Source: a bacterium (GTDB taxonomy: Bacteria; Patescibacteriota; Saccharimonadia; Saccharimonadales; Saccharimonadaceae). Taken from it: a stretch of DNA of 64,000 nt. A model generated the notes under the pieces. It saw only the letters and a program-made list of their open reading frames with translations. It was not told the origin of the DNA and did no database searches. Position numbers and translations under genes: made by a program. The DNA is taken from NCBI GenBank assembly GCA_030427525.1, contig JAUIBD010000001.1:18628-82627 (forward strand), given 5' to 3'. Shown here one piece after another: positions 51,861 to 57,370 of the stretch (position 1 is its first letter; every line of letters begins with the position of its first letter).

Positions 51861-52205
51861 TCAGTTTTGGTTTAGCAGCGTGCCATGCACAATGTGGAAG
51901 TGTAGGTGTTTTGAATCTTGGTACTCACCGAGATTTGTAAGAATCCGACAGCTGCCGTACTTCTGCTGCATATCAGCAGCGATGGTTTTGATCGTGTTCA
52001 GAATCTCTTTTGCGATTGGCGATGGAAATTCAAGGTCAAGAAACGAGCCAATGTGCTGTTTGGGAGTCACAACTACATGGTGTTCCCAAAATGGTTTTGT
52101 ATGATGATATGCCAAGACATTTTCGCTTTCGAATACCACACGAATGTCTATTTTTCTTGGAATAACGAGGTCGCAGTAGATATCTTTTCCTGTGTACTCT
52201 AGCAT
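51861..52205 (-). CDS. HIT-family (histidine triad) protein
   Basis: HHVVVTPKQHI and the triad HLHFHIV. The start was chosen at MLEYTGKD, 6 nt after a TGtTATAGT box. Confidence 0.75.
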   Translation of the reverse strand: MLEYTGKDIYCDLVIPRKIDIRVVFESENVLAYHHTKPFWEHHVVVTPKQHIGSFLDLEFPSPIAKEILNTIKTIAADMQQKYGSCRILTNLGEYQDSKHLHFHIVHGTLLNQN

Positions 52206-52252
52206 GATTCTACTATAACAAAGTCGTCTGTTCACGTGATACAATCATGCAT

Positions 52253-52585
52253 ATGGTTCATCCACACCATCATTTACATATACGAAAAAGAATACACCAG
52301 AAACACGAACCCTACCCTAGCCCAAAACCGTTTATTCGATATCTAGATAGGTGGGTTTCTGTACTTGGTACGGTTACGTCCCTCGCTGTGTTACCGCAAG
52401 TATTAGAAATATGGGCAAAAGAAAGCGCTGAGAATATATCGATACTAACCTGGGGCCTATTTACGATATGGAGCTACACGATGCTACTTTACGGGGTTGT
52501 GCACAAGGCAAGACCAATCATTATCACCTACATTCTCGCGGCAATACTAAATACAATGGTTGTAGCTGGAATATTTGTTTTTTAA
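52253..52585 (+). CDS. PQ-loop/SemiSWEET-like small membrane transporter
   Basis: TSLAVLPQVLEIW...ISILTWGLF...LLYGV fits the SemiSWEET PQ-loop pattern. The N-terminal tail is His-rich. The start is 52247 or 52253. Confidence 0.5.
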   Translation: MVHPHHHLHIRKRIHQKHEPYPSPKPFIRYLDRWVSVLGTVTSLAVLPQVLEIWAKESAENISILTWGLFTIWSYTMLLYGVVHKARPIIITYILAAILNTMVVAGIFVF

Positions 52586-53154
52586 ATCTGAGCTTTTCCC
52601 AGTGAATCTTCAACAAAGTACTCCCAGCCTGGTTTCCAATCACCAGTTTTACGCCAGTCCTCTTTTATGACCTGCTCCCAACTCTTACCACGCAGCAGAA
52701 CCTCCAGTGCAAATTGTGGTGCTTGGTGTGCCATGATAGCAATGTGTTTTCCATTATAGTTTTGCTTTAGAAACTCTAGAAAATCTGCTATGCGCGCCTC
52801 AACATCTTTGTAACTTTCACCATTAGGAAATGGCGTATCGATTCGTAATTCTTTACCACCGGCAAAAGCTTCTTGGCCAGGCTTGCCGTTCATTTCGCCA
52901 TAGTCACACTCGCGTAATCTAGCGTCTTGAATAATTTCGTAGACACCCTTAAAACCAAGTTCAGCGGAGACGATCGCTCTCTTCAAGTCAGAGCAGAACA
53001 TGACGTCAAACGTTTTATCAGCAACTTCATCTTTCAGTGCTTTAGCTTGTTGCATACCAAGCTTGGAAAGCTCGCCTGGGTTTTGACCAGTTGCAATCTC
53101 CTGCTCATTGTCGATGGTAGTACCGTGCACAAAATAAGTTATTCTAACTGCCAT
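52582..53154 (-). CDS. Histidine-phosphatase (phosphoglycerate-mutase-like) family protein
   Basis: ITYFVHGTT corresponds to the RHGET motif with Arg replaced by Val. Also present are CSDLKRA and the HQAP region. Confidence 0.6.
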   Translation of the reverse strand: MAVRITYFVHGTTIDNEQEIATGQNPGELSKLGMQQAKALKDEVADKTFDVMFCSDLKRAIVSAELGFKGVYEIIQDARLRECDYGEMNGKPGQEAFAGGKELRIDTPFPNGESYKDVEARIADFLEFLKQNYNGKHIAIMAHQAPQFALEVLLRGKSWEQVIKEDWRKTGDWKPGWEYFVEDSLGKAQI

Positions 53155-53316
53155 ATTGTCCTATTCTGCTGATAATTTTATCTGCTACTTCATCGATTGA
53201 CATCTCAGACGTATCAATTACCTCACCAAAATTCGGTGATGCAATTCCTGTATCATAATGGTATTAGATGTTGTTGATTTACCCGCATTGACACTACCGC
53301 TTATAAAGATGACCAT
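53144..53316 (-). pseudogene. Collapsed P-loop (Walker A) kinase gene
   Basis: The ATG at 53316 gives MVIFISGSVNAGKSTTSNTIMIQELHHRILVR*, with the stop at 53218-53220. Another frame continues ...GIASPNFGEVIDTSEMSIDEVADKIISRIGQYGS*, a typical small-kinase C-terminus that overlaps the next gene's start by 11 nt. Confidence 0.55.
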
Positions 53317-53330
53317 TCATTTATTATATC

Positions 53331-53376
53331 AAAACAGAGGTGTTTTACCTCTGTTTTAAGCATAAGCTATATGGAG
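53331..53376 (-). repeat. Copy 1 of the tRNA-Lys 3' flank with its terminator hairpin
   Basis: AAAACAGAGGTGTTTTACCTCTGTTTTAAGCATAAGCTATATGGAG compares with 55072-55117 AAAACAGAGGTATTTCACCTCTGTTTTAAACATAAGCTGTATGGAG. Confidence 0.8.
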
Positions 53377-53399
53377 TTTTATTGTGGAGACAACTAGAA

Positions 53400-54404
53400 C
53401 TAGTTATCGGTCTTTAATACCCGGATGCGGTTGAAGTTTTTACCTTTGATACCAAGATTGATGTCTTGCCACTCGAAACGTGAGGCCTCTAGCTGTTTTG
53501 GGCTGAGTACACGCTCTAAGTATTCATCCCCCGACTCCTGCAATACACCAGCACTTGCCCAGAACTTGGCAACTGAATGTTTTGTACTGCCAACAGCAAT
53601 GTATCCACTAAATGGCATCGCGCTTATGCGAATTATACTGTCGTCTTCCAAATAAGGCTGCAGAGTTTTTGTTCTGAATATCGCTTGGTGCTCAAGCTCG
53701 ACTTTCCGGTGCCAATCAGGGTCGTTTGCTTGACCGGGTTTTAATCTCACATTAAATTCAGTAATCTTTTTTTCTGCGTCAGTCATTTCAGGATATTTTT
53801 CGCCAAGCTCATCAAAAAGAGCTTTCTTCGCGTCTTCAATCTCTTCATCATATTCATTGATGTCTTCGTATTCTTCTGCATGACGACCATAAGTAATACT
53901 AACCTTGTCTGGCAAATATTCCTCAAACCAGTCAAGTAAAACCCTGAATGAGCTTGAATACTGGTCCGTTTCTGAGCGAGAGACATTATTTAGACGCTCA
54001 ATCGAAACATCTTGAGAGTAAAAGCCAAACTCGACTCCGTGTTCATAAACGCTGCAAATCGTTCGTATCCAATTTACGAAGTACATCAGACTAAAAAGCT
54101 CAGCCCAGTCTACCTCTGGAGCTTCATCTATACGCCAAATCTTATTTCCTCCGAAAAGCAATCCTATCTTTATGGGCGTTTTCTTCGAAACCGCGATGTG
54201 GATAGCATGCTTACACGCGTCGATAGCTACCTGATCCGCCGCATACTTACGAAATTTTTTCGACAATATTTTGGACAAAATGGCAGCCTCAAGCTTATCG
54301 GACTCAATTACTTGAAGTTCTATAGGCTCTTTGAGACTTAGAAGCTTTGATTGAATATATTCTTGTGCTGTCATAGTTGTGAATTGGAGATGCGAGGTAG
54401 ACAC
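53400..54404 (-). CDS. Hypothetical protein (334 aa), cassette gene B
   Basis: Intact ORF with a GTG at 54404 or an ATG at 54374. No family is confidently recognised (see finding). Confidence 0.55.
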   Translation of the reverse strand: MSTSHLQFTTMTAQEYIQSKLLSLKEPIELQVIESDKLEAAILSKILSKKFRKYAADQVAIDACKHAIHIAVSKKTPIKIGLLFGGNKIWRIDEAPEVDWAELFSLMYFVNWIRTICSVYEHGVEFGFYSQDVSIERLNNVSRSETDQYSSSFRVLLDWFEEYLPDKVSITYGRHAEEYEDINEYDEEIEDAKKALFDELGEKYPEMTDAEKKITEFNVRLKPGQANDPDWHRKVELEHQAIFRTKTLQPYLEDDSIIRISAMPFSGYIAVGSTKHSVAKFWASAGVLQESGDEYLERVLSPKQLEASRFEWQDINLGIKGKNFNRIRVLKTDN

Positions 54405-54473
54405 TACGCTACCGTACGCAGCCTTTCGGGGCTACCACCTGTTCTCGGTCATCGCATCAAATATCATTATATC

Positions 54474-54520
54474 AAAAAACAGAGGTGTTTTACCTCTGCT
54501 TTGCGAAAACCAGATTGGAG
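54474..54520 (-). repeat. Copy 2 (more degenerate) of the tRNA-Lys flank with its hairpin
   Basis: AAAAAACAGAGGTGTTTTACCTCTGCTTTGCGAAAACCAGATTGGAG. The CAGAGGT/ACCTCTG stem and the terminal TGGAG are retained. Confidence 0.65.
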
Positions 54521-54543
54521 GTCTATTGTAGAGATAATGGGAA

Positions 54544-55056
54544 CTACAGTAGCTCGATTATGCCAATGACAGCATTGCTTTTCTCTACCCCATCCTTAAA
54601 GGCAAAGCCGTCTGTTTTGATGTCAGTTCGGCCATGGTATCGATGCTCGACCACATCAAAGTAACTCGCATCATAGATTGTGAGTATATCTATCTTTGTC
54701 GGGCGACCATGTACGCTAATCGCACTGTGGTAAAATCCATAGATTACTTGCCATCCTAGATTCATATGTTCATGGACGGTTTCCTCAAATGCGAATAGGT
54801 CGATATGCTTGTTGTCAACGTTTTCGTAGCGGTCACCTCTACGTGCCTCATCGTATCTATCCGTGCCTGTCGTGATAATAGTTTGAATTAGCTCTTCTCG
54901 ATCAATATTGTGTTCGGATGAACCAATGCCACGCAGTAGTATTTCATCCCCCGAGAAATTATTCATCAGAGCATTATCTATCTTTCGTCCGATAGATTCA
55001 TAATTCGGCTCAGACTCTACCGTATATTCTGGCACCGCGATTTCAATTCTCTTCAT
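54544..55056 (-). CDS. Hypothetical protein (170 aa), cassette gene A
   Basis: The start was chosen at MKRIEIAVPEY. The ORF track's 55104 start would run through the tRNA terminator hairpin. No motif was recognised. Confidence 0.5.
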   Translation of the reverse strand: MKRIEIAVPEYTVESEPNYESIGRKIDNALMNNFSGDEILLRGIGSSEHNIDREELIQTIITTGTDRYDEARRGDRYENVDNKHIDLFAFEETVHEHMNLGWQVIYGFYHSAISVHGRPTKIDILTIYDASYFDVVEHRYHGRTDIKTDGFAFKDGVEKSNAVIGIIELL

Positions 55057-55071
55057 GTATTTATGATACCA

Positions 55072-55098
55072 AAAACAGAGGTATTTCACCTCTGTTTT
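55072..55098 (-). terminator. Intrinsic terminator of tRNA-Lys
   Basis: An 11-bp perfect stem, AAAACAGAGGT-ATTTC-ACCTCTGTTTT, with the U tract continuing on the minus strand. Confidence 0.75.
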
Positions 55099-55112
55099 AA
55101 ACATAAGCTGTA

Positions 55113-55189
55113 TGGAGGGCCCACTGAGACTTGAACTCAGGACACCCTGCTTAAGAGGCAGGTGCTCTAACCAGCTGAGCTATGGGCCC
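55113..55189 (-). tRNA. tRNA-Lys (anticodon CUU), CCA encoded
   Basis: Acceptor GGGCCCA/TGGGCCC, D arm GCTC..GAGC, anticodon arm CCTGC-CTCTTAA-GCAGG, T arm CTGAG-TTCAAGT-CTCAG. Confidence 0.9.
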
Positions 55190-55206
55190 ATAGCTTCACT
55201 CTGGAA

Positions 55207-55235
55207 ACTATACCAAACAGAGGTCGTTTTGTCTA
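55207..55235 (-). promoter_or_regulatory. Promoter of tRNA-Lys
   Basis: On the minus strand, TAGACA (55235-55230), a 17-nt spacer, then an extended -10 TGgTATAGT (-10 hexamer at 55212-55207). Confidence 0.55.
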
Positions 55236-55301
55236 GAGGCTATATTTACACACCACGAATTTTGGAGTAGTATCAAAGCAGTAATAACGTGGAGGTACGC
55301 G

Positions 55302-55802
55302 ATGAGCGAGCAATATAATACACAGCCAGCGGGGCTGGAAAAATCACTAGATGGTATGTATAAGAAATGGCCACAATTGCCCGAAGGTTTCAAAAAATGG
55401 CTAGCAAACAATGTATGGTGGCTCGCGCTTGTAGGTGCAATTTTATCGGCCTTAAGCGTGCTTACCTCATGGAATTATGCCGGCCAAGTTTCGCGCGTAG
55501 ATGATTTCGCACGAAGTTATGGTGTAGATCTATATAATGGCGGTAGCTCAACGTATTGGTGGATTATGATGGCTGCTTCTGCTGTAGAGGCGGTACTGCT
55601 GTTTATGGCATTTCAAAAGCTTAAAGAGCACAAAAAAGATGGATGGAACCTGCTGTTCTATACGTCATTGGTGAGTGTTGGCGCCACTGTTTTAGCTGCC
55701 TTTATGTCAAAATCTGTCGTGGGTACACTAATTGGTGCTGCCATAGGTGCATTAATTAGCTGGTTCTTCTTATTCGCTGTTCGCAGTAAGTTCACGAAAT
55801 AA
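55302..55802 (+). CDS. Hypothetical membrane protein (166 aa)
   Basis: Four hydrophobic helices after a short cytoplasmic N-terminus. Confidence 0.5.
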   Translation: MSEQYNTQPAGLEKSLDGMYKKWPQLPEGFKKWLANNVWWLALVGAILSALSVLTSWNYAGQVSRVDDFARSYGVDLYNGGSSTYWWIMMAASAVEAVLLFMAFQKLKEHKKDGWNLLFYTSLVSVGATVLAAFMSKSVVGTLIGAAIGALISWFFLFAVRSKFTK

Positions 55803-55804
55803 GA

Positions 55805-57370
55805 CTACAGTTCGTCTTTTTTCGCGCTGATAAATGCGCTCCACTGACGCACCAAACGCAAGATGGTTTTTAGTGGCAGCTCGATAAGCATATCAAGCAC
55901 CAAAGCTACTAAGTTTACCTTGGCGTATTTATCACTAATGTAACGACCCACTACCACGAACGGCATATACAGAAAGTCACGTACTACGGTGACACCATTT
56001 TGCGTGCTATCGATTGATTCGAGCTCACGTATCATGCGGCTTAGCCGGAAGCCAAGGAAGCTGGCGCCGGAGAGGAATACGAAGAAGACACCGAGATGGA
56101 GAAGATCGAAGCCAAAGTAGTGCCACAACGCCCAAGCAACACCGCCAAATACCAACATGAATACTGCTGCGTAGGCGATGTTGTATCCCGCACTGAACTG
56201 TTGACTAACTTTACGAAGCAGCTGAGGCTTTGTTTCATCGTCATATAGCGTATGCTCAACTTCACGTACCAGCTGCATGGTATTTGCCGGGCCTGGCATA
56301 AGGAGTGTTGTGCGTAGTAACACCATGTATAGGGGTGGGAATAGTAAATTTATCAGCAGCGGTGTCCACAAAATTGCGCCAGCAACGACATAGTCATACG
56401 GTATTTCGATACCAATGCCAATGAGGAACTTTGTAATAATAAGGAAAATGACGCTACGAATAATGCCTTGGTTTACCTTTTTACTAATTGCGTCGTAGTC
56501 ATCAGTCACCTGTTTTTCAAACACCACCAGAAATTGTGATTTGTTCTCGAGTAGTTGTGGTAAACTCGGATCGGCCTCGACCAGATGGCGAAGTACGCGT
56601 AGATGCGCACTACGGCGGTCGATAACGTGATACAGTTTTTCAGTGTTTGAATCACTAAACAGTTCATCGATCTGCTTGTTGGTTTGTATATACGGTGACA
56701 GATGCTCTGGTGCCTGCTGATAGCGCTTTAGCAGACCCAATCGAATCACCGCTTCATCCGACTTTAGTAGTGCACGGTGGATTGCCACATACAGCGCAGT
56801 CTCGGTATTCGAGGGCTTGCTACCCAGCAGCTTAGCAAAGTCGAGTGTGCGCAAAAAGTGGGTGTGTGCAAATTGAGTGAAGGCTTGTAGATAGCTGCTG
56901 TCGTTTAGTAACCACTCGGTTTCAACCGCAAGTAACTCATAGCTCCACTGTTCGACTTGTTGACTGCCTACTCCCTTTGCCTTTTCTAAGTCCAGGTACA
57001 GCTTGTAGTACTTTTCTGCCAGCTCGCTGATAGTCTGCATGGTTGACTCTGGCACGGAATCGTTGGCGACGTACCCTGCCTGTGTCAGTTCAATCAGTAA
57101 CTCCTCGCCACAATTAGCGATTCGTGATGTATCTCGCAGCAAGAAAAGTCGTTTAAAAAAACGACGGATCGCGCGTTGCAATAATACGTGTTCTTCCGTG
57201 TATTCTGCGGCATTTCGTAGTTGCTCGTACGCTGCTGTAATAGTTGCACCAGCACCAACAACATGTACTTTTTGTGCAGCCTCCTGCTTCTTCGAGCGGG
57301 CGGTTGCTTGTTCGTGAGCATGTGCTAATGCTTTCGCAAATTGATGTCCGATGGTGTTTAACTGTGTCAT
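55805..57370 (-). CDS. Hypothetical large membrane protein (521 aa)
   Basis: A soluble helical N-terminal half and a polytopic C-terminal half. It starts 12 nt downstream of tRNA-Arg. Confidence 0.55.
   Translation of the reverse strand: MTQLNTIGHQFAKALAHAHEQATARSKKQEAAQKVHVVGAGATITAAYEQLRNAAEYTEEHVLLQRAIRRFFKRLFLLRDTSRIANCGEELLIELTQAGYVANDSVPESTMQTISELAEKYYKLYLDLEKAKGVGSQQVEQWSYELLAVETEWLLNDSSYLQAFTQFAHTHFLRTLDFAKLLGSKPSNTETALYVAIHRALLKSDEAVIRLGLLKRYQQAPEHLSPYIQTNKQIDELFSDSNTEKLYHVIDRRSAHLRVLRHLVEADPSLPQLLENKSQFLVVFEKQVTDDYDAISKKVNQGIIRSVIFLIITKFLIGIGIEIPYDYVVAGAILWTPLLINLLFPPLYMVLLRTTLLMPGPANTMQLVREVEHTLYDDETKPQLLRKVSQQFSAGYNIAYAAVFMLVFGGVAWALWHYFGFDLLHLGVFFVFLSGASFLGFRLSRMIRELESIDSTQNGVTVVRDFLYMPFVVVGRYISDKYAKVNLVALVLDMLIELPLKTILRLVRQWSAFISAKKDEL

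Follow-up and report, generated by a model that had tools for sequence, protein, structure and literature searches.

A putative integron-like array of gene cassettes adjoining the 3' end of tRNA-Lys(CTT) in a Saccharimonadales genome

Cis-mobilizable elements (CIMEs) lack an integrase, are flanked by attachment (att) sites and occur in tandem with integrative and conjugative elements (ICEs). Streptococcus agalactiae has them at the 3' end of tRNA-Lys(CTT), for instance, and S. thermophilus at fda. CIMEs are kilobases long and represent decayed ICEs, and their movement is attributed to the recombinase of another element, acting either in cis or in trans. The ssrA-specific islands of Dehalococcoides, located in a reduced genome, are reportedly arranged in tandem, with the 3' end of a small-RNA gene directly repeated at their borders, and are said to carry serine-recombinase genes and many genes each. 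In Prochlorococcus, tRNA genes are hotspots for tycheposon islands, in which successive integrations push older elements inward and leave partial tRNAs and degenerate elements scattered along the island (10.1101/2020.12.28.424599). The genomes of Saccharibacteria and other Patescibacteria are about 1 Mb in size, and the way in which they gain and lose accessory genes is poorly understood. Here we analysed a stretch of 64,000 nucleotides (hereafter the window) from a genome of the Saccharimonadaceae, in which tRNA-Lys(CTT) is followed on the minus strand by two genes, A and B, each bounded by copies of a short repeat unit that contains a terminator-like hairpin and a -10-like sequence.

The window is part of a 201-kb contig of the source genome, G000, whose assembly comprises 996 kb in 29 contigs and which the names of homologues assign to Candidatus Saccharibacteria, order Saccharimonadales. 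On the minus strand the order is tRNA-Lys(CTT), unit 1, gene A, unit 2, a 74-nt leader, gene B, unit 3, a kinase stump and a histidine phosphatase gene. As judged from sequence comparisons, the locus is probably an array of gene cassettes that begins at the 3' end of tRNA-Lys(CTT) and was built up by serial site-specific insertion of promoter-bearing cassettes, much in the manner of an integron.

The boundaries of the cassettes became apparent upon comparison with G002, a genome of the same genus whose flanking proteins are 80-87% identical. In G002, the tRNA is joined through TCCA to ATCTGC..., followed by the hairpin, the leader and gene B, and gene A is missing. In G000, the stretch that follows the TCCA behind gene A is identical to the G002 tRNA-Lys flank at 108 of 120 positions (90%), whereas the stretch that follows the TCCA of the tRNA itself, which is of the order-wide consensus type, matches that flank at only 44 of 120. 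Thus gene A, along with its own spacer, hairpin, promoter and pseudo-tRNA end, came or went exactly at CC/TCCA, and the same junction pattern was observed at tRNA-Lys(TTT) between genomes G139 and G198. The initial annotation had likened the layout to serial site-specific insertion at the tRNA end, a proposal with which these TCCA-exact junctions between empty and occupied sites agree.

Furthermore, whole cassettes are found in distant lineages. A cassette with a 114-aa gene shows 87% DNA identity over 445 nt between G224 (family f8), where it is tRNA-proximal at tRNA-Lys(TTT), and G132 (family f55), where it forms the fifth block of a tRNA-Lys(CTT) array. The homology starts right after CCCTCCA, spans the spacer, hairpin, promoter, open reading frame (ORF) and pseudo-end, and ends at the next TCCA; to the left of CCCTCCA the two genomes are unrelated, with the tRNA in one and the pseudo-end of the preceding cassette in the other. 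MurB is only 29% identical between these two genomes, and identities of 78-96% were found for other cassette genes between families whose MurB proteins are 29-43% identical. The cassettes are therefore separate modules, delimited by CCCTCCA and exchanged horizontally. The terminator and the promoter are part of the downstream cassette, at its 5' end, and not of the end of the upstream one, as the limits of the G224/G132 homology demonstrate.

The repeat itself was first recognized as three 46-nt copies, located after tRNA-Lys (55072-55117), gene A (54476-54521) and gene B (53331-53376). These copies are genuine: relative to the third, the tRNA-adjacent copy is 91% and the middle copy 72% identical. 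The hairpin CAGAGGT-N5-ACCTCTG was found three times in the window, as against 0.21 occurrences expected, a number reached in none of 100 shuffles, and it is limited to these three sites in the entire 996-kb assembly. A profile hidden Markov model built exclusively from the units of other genomes recovered the same three sites and nothing else (E = 1e-17, 2e-12 and 1e-9), so that the unit is not a genome-wide terminator. The tRNA-proximal copy is followed by TGGTATCAT and both internal copies by TTGATATAAT, as originally reported. RNA folding of the three hairpins gave -14.2, -16.4 and -17.2 kcal/mol, with z-scores from -2.8 to -5.5 (the latter for the third), and the hairpins end in four to six U residues, which fits an intrinsic terminator; variants that tolerate G·U pairs were seen in other genomes. 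A simple promoter/terminator scanner flagged none of the units because A-U pairs absorb the U-run.

The true unit is about 90 nt rather than 46 nt long, as the internal copies reach some 26 nt further in the 5' direction (54545-54516 and 53401-53372) and overlap the TAG stop of gene A or gene B. It consists of a decayed pseudo-tRNA 3' end that begins at the upstream stop (TAGTTGCAA...GGCCC), the core TCCA, the spacer GCTTATGCTTAAAA, the terminator hairpin and, past an extended -10 box, a leaderless ATG. From 30-odd genomes we collected 52 distinct units, 19 of which sit directly behind an intact tRNA-Lys (CTT or TTT) and at least 23 of which are internal and have a conserved pseudo-tRNA end. 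The consensus of the latter reads (T)AGTTGCAAYAGC-N10-GGCCC / TCCA / ATAC-GCTTATGCTTAAAA, hairpin, T-run, TGNTATAAT, or in shortened form AGTTGCAAYAGC...GGCCC / TCCA / ATACGCTTATGCTTAAAA. The pseudo-tRNA end begins at, or a few bases from, the stop codon of the preceding gene, and each unit closes with the T-run and TGNTATAAT, the ATG lying 6-8 nt 3' of the -10 box. Units 2 and 3 of the window are decayed representatives of the internal type, with pseudo-ends AGTTCCCATTATCTCTACAATAGACC and AGTTCTAGTTGTCTCCACAATAAAAC, each joined to TCCA and with the TAG stop supplying the first bases; all three junctions of the window show an unaltered C(C)TCCA, and the roughly 26 nt of decayed pseudo-tRNA end are present at the two internal ones.

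Conservation within the unit is strongest at AGTTGCAA, at GCCC-TCCA and in the spacer, which persists even where the hairpin sequence has been wholly replaced (e.g. GACGCG-aaag-CGTC). The hairpin is thus a generic, exchangeable terminator, and the specifically constrained part comprises the pseudo-tRNA end, the core and the spacer. The proposal that the tRNA end and the terminator together serve as attachment site is consequently retained for CCCTCCA and its neighbours, the pseudo-tRNA end and the spacer GCTTATGCTTAAAA, but not for the hairpin. RNA pairing of the pseudo-tRNA end (GCAAUAGCG) with the spacer (CGCUUAUGC) was considered and dropped after a check by eye, in which the changes were not compensatory. 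The features of the locus are as follows.

55207..55235, minus strand: predicted promoter of tRNA-Lys, TAGACA and TG-TATAGT at 17-nt spacing; 10/12 match to consensus plus the TG extension.
55113..55189, minus strand: tRNA-Lys(CTT) with encoded CCA, called by ARAGORN and by Rfam (RF00005, 69 bits).
55119-55113, minus strand: junction core CCCTCCA, the last bases of tRNA-Lys(CTT), shared by the junctions compared; proposed attI-like role.
55063..55112, minus strand: 5' module of cassette A, with spacer TACAGCTTATGTTTAAA, hairpin AAAACAGAGGT-GAAAT-ACCTCTGTTTT (55098-55072) and extended -10 box TGGTATCAT (55071-55063).
54544..55056, minus strand: gene A, 170 aa, leaderless; conserved Saccharibacteria family, start codon fixed by alignment.
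54516..54545, minus strand: 3' end of cassette A, decayed pseudo-tRNA end AGTTCCCATTATCTCTACAATAGACC and core TCCA, overlapping the gene A stop TAG.
54466..54515, minus strand: 5' module of cassette B, with native-type spacer ATCTGGTTTTCGCAA, hairpin (54502-54476) and -10 box TTGATATAAT (54475-54466).
54385..54458, minus strand: tRNA-Cys-like cloverleaf leader of 74 nt directly 5' of gene B; RNA fold and covariation.
53400..54374, minus strand: gene B, 324 aa, divergent IsnA/PvcA-like protein; weak Pfam match (PF05141), structure model and Foldseek.
53372..53401, minus strand: 3' end of cassette B, decayed pseudo-tRNA end AGTTCTAGTTGTCTCCACAATAAAAC and core TCCA, overlapping the gene B stop TAG.
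53323..53371, minus strand: 5' module of the third cassette, with spacer TATAGCTTATGCTTAAA, hairpin (53357-53331) and -10 box TTGATATAAT (53332-53323).
53150..53316, minus strand: P-loop kinase remnant; translation of the Walker-A N-terminus MVIFISGSVNAGKSTT is cut short by a stop, and a different frame encodes the C-terminus.
52582..53154, minus strand: histidine phosphatase gene (His_Phos_1, Pfam E = 1e-27).

Cassette A is 593 nt long, and cassette B, with the leader and the IsnA-like gene, 1140 nt; their GC content (0.41-0.44) is slightly below that of the flanks. The spacer of cassette A is of the consensus type common to 46 of 401 genomes of the order, and its 5' module is predicted to double as the terminator of tRNA-Lys(CTT) (-14.2 kcal/mol fold). 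At its 3' end, the nhmmer match (E = 1e-9) includes the 5' extension of the unit. In the third cassette, the kinase remnant at 53150-53316 is, by its translations, an internally deleted cargo gene whose C-terminal part still overlaps the start of the histidine phosphatase gene, which is probably the second gene of this cassette; its G224 homologue (G224_5804; 49% identical) forms a separate cassette with a unit on either side. A SemiSWEET transporter gene (52247-52585, plus strand) and a HIT-family gene (51861-52244, minus strand) complete the variable stretch up to a conserved lipoprotein gene, and in G002 a HAD phosphatase is found at the position of these two.

The distribution of the unit was determined by searching 401 genomes of the order for the pattern TCCA-N4-GCTTATGNTTAAAACAGAGG with up to three mismatches, the reversed pattern serving as control. 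The pattern was detected behind tRNA-Lys (CTT or TTT) in 46 genomes, representing 36 of 255 genera and many families, and the control gave no match. Two or three copies lay within 10 kb in 12 genomes. Only three of the 20 genomes of the same genus (G000, G002 and G016) have the unit behind tRNA-Lys(CTT), the other 17 having unrelated terminators there. Such conservation across families together with patchiness inside a genus indicates that the unit is not an ordinary vertically inherited flank.

Two further observations were made at other unit-bearing or tRNA-Lys loci. At three loci from three families (L079, L080 and L093, in G183, G112 and G086, respectively), a gene for a 289-aa membrane protein, 96% identical, is convergent on the unit behind tRNA-Lys(TTT) and appears to be horizontally mobile along with the unit. 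At L036 (G009:C1), tRNA-Lys(CTT) is chimeric: its 5' part resembles that of G004 (GGGTCCA...CCTGGG), and from the T loop onwards it resembles that of G014 (CCCCTCCTGGCCC), with mismatches in the T stem and acceptor stem as expected of an attL-type scar resulting from a crossover in the T loop.

A cassette consists of the spacer, terminator hairpin, T-run, extended -10 box, one or more leaderless ORFs, the TAG stop and about 26 nt of pseudo-tRNA 3' end, and neighbouring cassettes meet at CCCTCCA, a 7-bp core with which the tRNA, too, ends. For a cassette to enter or leave, the tRNA end, in an attI-like role, would recombine with the junction of a circularized cassette, in which the pseudo-tRNA end, TCCA and spacer would be attC-like. 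For cassette A, the predicted circle junction is ...CAATAGACCTCCA joined to TACAGCTTATGTTT..., and the predicted empty site is the tRNA (...GGGCCCTCCA) joined to ATCTGGTTTTCG... Because entry would take place at the tRNA end, the newest cassette should be the one next to the tRNA. Each incoming cassette would supply the tRNA with a new terminator and bring its own promoter, so that it would be insulated and the tRNA gene unharmed. As the recombinase is not encoded at the locus, it would have to act in trans or to have acted in the past, candidates being a large serine recombinase such as that at tRNA-Lys(TTT) or the single Xer-type tyrosine recombinase.

The absence of a recombinase from the locus, stated in the initial annotation, was confirmed, since matches to PF00589 and PF00239 lie elsewhere. 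Large serine recombinases (PF00239) are frequent in the order, with none in the arrays. That of G000, a 550-aa protein encoded at C2:132461-134113 (L046:462-2114) within the region C2:131975-134113, runs antisense through the sister tRNA-Lys(TTT) (C2:134025-134101) and lies at the edge of a ~9-kb island, approximately 51 kb past the end of the window. The island also contains another resolvase-like gene as well as a 421-aa ORF, cytosine-methyltransferase-like by motif only; G002 carries at the tRNA-Lys(TTT) site a unit and an EEP-family cassette, not an island. The serine-recombinase island indicates that tRNA-Lys-directed recombination exists in G000, and its recombinase is a candidate for the enzyme of the cassettes. 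Two Xer copies are present in G000, corresponding to two co-binned strains: contigs C15 and C28 are 72-83% identical over kilobases and their Xer genes 97% identical, indicating that the bin holds pieces of two related strains. A simple scan of the genome for dif-like palindromes gave no convincing candidate. Xer-exploiting elements (IMEX) use a dif-like site, in which two arms of about 11 bp flank a centre of 6 bp. The spacer TTATG(C/T)TTAAA agrees at 8-9 of 11 positions with the canonical XerD arm, and no XerC-like arm was found in the unit.

Several results weigh against an array made by site-specific insertion. No recombinase was found in or beside any of the 26 arrays inspected, and the tyrosine recombinases (PF00589), one Xer-like protein per genome examined, are encoded on other contigs or far from the arrays. 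A serine recombinase as obligatory partner was rejected, as it was present in 14 of 20 unit-positive and 16 of 20 unit-negative genomes and absent from six genomes with good arrays. Likewise, a Y1 transposase (PF01797), considered as mobilizer because of a copy in G025, showed no association (present in six of 20 genomes with the unit and in six of 20 without it). A search of IMG/VR with the 17-mer of the spacer for an attP-bearing phage gave three chance matches without hairpin. The internal copies in G000 are degenerate, with an extension only about 60% identical to the consensus, and present activity of the cassettes in this genome is doubtful. Lastly, the body of gene B is only 39% identical at the amino acid level between G000 and G002, and the leader differs by a single nucleotide, a contrast which indicates that homologous recombination also remodels the locus.

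It seems unlikely, nevertheless, that homologous recombination acts here without any site-specific step. On such an account, the units would have been kept as useful terminator-promoter modules, and cassettes would pass from strain to strain through DNA uptake and RecA, with the 60-90-nt units and the tRNA gene supplying homology that travels with them. The lack of a recombinase at every array would be as expected, as would the replacement of the gene B body beneath a nearly unchanged leader and the fact that the tRNA-Lys(TTT) gene and unit of G002 resemble, as a whole, those of other families. Moreover, Saccharibacteria are naturally competent and integrate DNA via homologous recombination (PMC10633639). 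The origin of the first junctions would, however, be left unexplained, and there would be no account of homology with both of its limits precisely at CCCTCCA in different families, of a conserved pseudo-tRNA end unlike every real tRNA-Lys, or of a 14-nt spacer that outdoes a regulatory hairpin in conservation. Homologous recombination by itself cannot account for such sharp and conserved boundaries.

It is also rather improbable that the segments are remnants of larger, integrase-bearing islands which lost the integrase and most genes and left cargo between att scars, as in decay of the tycheposon or CIME type. Such islands are near at hand, given the ~9-kb element at tRNA-Lys(TTT) with its two resolvase-domain genes and methyltransferase-like gene, and the chimeric tRNA-Lys of G009 is typical of attL. 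A second tRNA hotspot in the same window, at tRNA-Glu, has tRNA-end fragments without an integrase, and tycheposon islands decay in exactly this way (10.1101/2020.12.28.424599). On the other hand, more than 20 internal units, spread over many families, delimit single genes whose stop codon falls within the unit and whose leaderless start lies 6-8 nt past the -10 box, and no remnant of an integrase was detected. One single-gene cassette has identical boundaries in two families, and random decay would not be expected to yield modules of such uniformity and compactness.

Local tandem duplication of the tRNA-Lys 3' region around vertically inherited neighbours, to which the 91% identity of copies 1 and 3 and the only slightly reduced GC content of the cassettes might point, is highly improbable and largely refuted by the sequence comparisons, as genes A and B are missing from nearly all relatives, 17 of 20 same-genus genomes have unrelated terminators after tRNA-Lys(CTT), and the consensus is common to distant families, the internal copies fitting this foreign consensus and not their own tRNA.

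We therefore retain the cassette array, formed by serial insertion at the tRNA-Lys end, as the favoured interpretation, and infer that its junctions are the work of a recombinase. Such an array is in keeping with tRNA hotspots of other streamlined genomes, the tycheposon islands among them, and with the hotspot at tRNA-Glu in the window. With its internal copies in decay and its kinase gene collapsed, the array in G000 appears to be old and ageing and not currently active. A more far-reaching proposal, which we put forward tentatively as a possibility, is that Saccharimonadales possess a true, active cassette system equivalent to the integron, with entry at the tRNA-Lys 3' end, a cassette site of ~60-90 bp (pseudo-tRNA end, CCCTCCA and GCTTATGCTTAAAA), a terminator and promoter for each cassette, and a recombinase encoded elsewhere, be it a large serine recombinase of a co-resident island or, where a genome has nothing else, the lone Xer, and that this system would be a main route of gene flux in these very small epibiont genomes.

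The cargo is accessory. Both genes had been regarded as orphans, which they are not: gene A (55 homologues) and gene B (more than 436) each belong to a conserved family of Saccharibacteria or Patescibacteria. In 41 relatives, gene A was present in one or two (39 lacking it) and gene B in four, a scarcity which marks both as accessory genes and not as syntenic core genes. The nearest metagenomic homologues of gene A (64%) and gene B (79%) are not located at tRNA-Lys and added no junctions. The absence of a recognizable function was borne out for gene A, which had no Pfam or NCBIfam match and, in spite of a model with a predicted local distance difference test score (pLDDT) of 89, no fold match in the PDB; for gene B it was not, as described below. 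In G000 and 25 other loci the cassettes are co-oriented, mostly of a single ORF, and separated by units. Altogether, 38 cassette genes cover 44 Pfam families, among them HAD, EEP, NUDIX, AAA_18 kinases, SDR, deformylase, His_Phos_1, deaminase, methyltransferase, APH and α/β hydrolase; the 25 commonest of these families include no recombinase, and among the ORFs only the Y1 transposase of the G025 array departs from this. In that tRNA-Lys array (L019; G025:C26, 656-3615), NUDIX and 130-aa genes are duplicated exactly on both sides of the Y1 (IS200-like) transposase gene.

The structure model of the gene B product (pLDDT 94) matched the isonitrile synthases PIsnA (9dh4) and PvcA (3e59) in Foldseek (TM 0.63, E = 1e-10), followed by tyrosyl-tRNA synthetase (TyrRS) and cyclodipeptide synthases (CDPS), and the product is predicted from this model to be a divergent isonitrile-synthase-like protein with a Rossmann fold related to that of class-I aminoacyl-tRNA synthetases. 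The leader at 54385-54458 folds into a cloverleaf in which an acceptor-like stem of 7 bp is followed by a discriminator U and a terminal CCA, and its D, anticodon and T loops are non-canonical, with 8 nt in the T loop and 5-6 nt in the anticodon loop, unlike those of a canonical tRNA. It was called neither by Rfam, where a scan of 52500-56000 at E <= 1 returned the tRNA alone, nor by ARAGORN even at relaxed thresholds; only the mitochondrial mode of ARAGORN draws the cloverleaf. A cloverleaf was found upstream of 73 of 83 gene B relatives in unrelated genomic contexts (the leader loci being that of the window, L016, L018, L026-L028 and L101-L181). At 26 loci, mostly from other Patescibacteria phyla, ARAGORN called a tRNA-Cys(GCA) that ends 1-25 nt before the start codon, whereas the leaders of Saccharimonadales, with non-canonical D and T loops, were not called as tRNA. 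In the alignment, 97% of cells were paired, as compared with 34-45% in slid controls, and 15 of 21 pairs showed double changes, which strongly supports the four helices of the cloverleaf. By its sequence, then, the leader in Saccharimonadales is a putative degenerate tRNA-like element derived from tRNA-Cys. It may be a tRNA mimic for processing or autoregulation, or the gene B enzyme, if the structural assignment is correct, may work on or with this RNA. The pairing of leader and gene B across many Patescibacteria points to an undescribed tRNA-linked enzyme or a tRNA-mimic control element.

If true, a compact cassette platform at tRNA-Lys, common across the order, would provide a concrete mechanism of gene flux, with sharp boundaries, self-insulating modules and sharing across families. 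The consensus of the unit would offer a searchable signature for a flexible gene pool of kinases, NUDIX and HAD hydrolases, phosphatases, deaminases and APH-type phosphotransferases. It also poses the question which enzyme recombines CCCTCCA, in organisms, the Saccharibacteria, that are now genetically tractable.

In comparison with the systems described so far, the locus does not behave as an IS200/IS605 or REP-RAYT element, as there is no association with Y1 (HUH) transposases and the hairpin occurs only three times in the G000 genome. With tRNA-linked integrative islands it shares insertion at the tRNA CCA end, repeats of the tRNA end and precise empty sites (G002/G000 and G139/G198), but no tyrosine or serine integrase gene is located inside the element. 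Like the tycheposons, the array occupies a tRNA gene hotspot in a streamlined genome; the tycheposons, however, encode a tyrosine recombinase and replication functions of their own, and their repeats are true partial tRNAs, whereas the cassettes described here share only CCCTCCA and a diverged pseudo-end with the tRNA. CIMEs are likewise bounded by att repeats, devoid of recombination genes and arranged in tandem at the tRNA-Lys 3' end, and differ in that the present cassettes are uniform single-gene modules with a conserved 5' insulator and that no ICE is present. With integrons the array has in common one-gene, co-oriented cassettes at a single entry site, a site-like element formed between them from two cassette ends, the newest cassette nearest to the entry site, small accessory enzymes as cargo and cassettes common to distant lineages. 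It differs from integrons in that no IntI gene adjoins the platform and a tRNA gene, by its 3' end, serves for entry; in that there are no R''-L''/L'-R' boxes of attC and no GTTRRRY core, the sole long palindrome being the exchangeable terminator; and in that each cassette has its own terminator and predicted promoter in place of a common promoter Pc.

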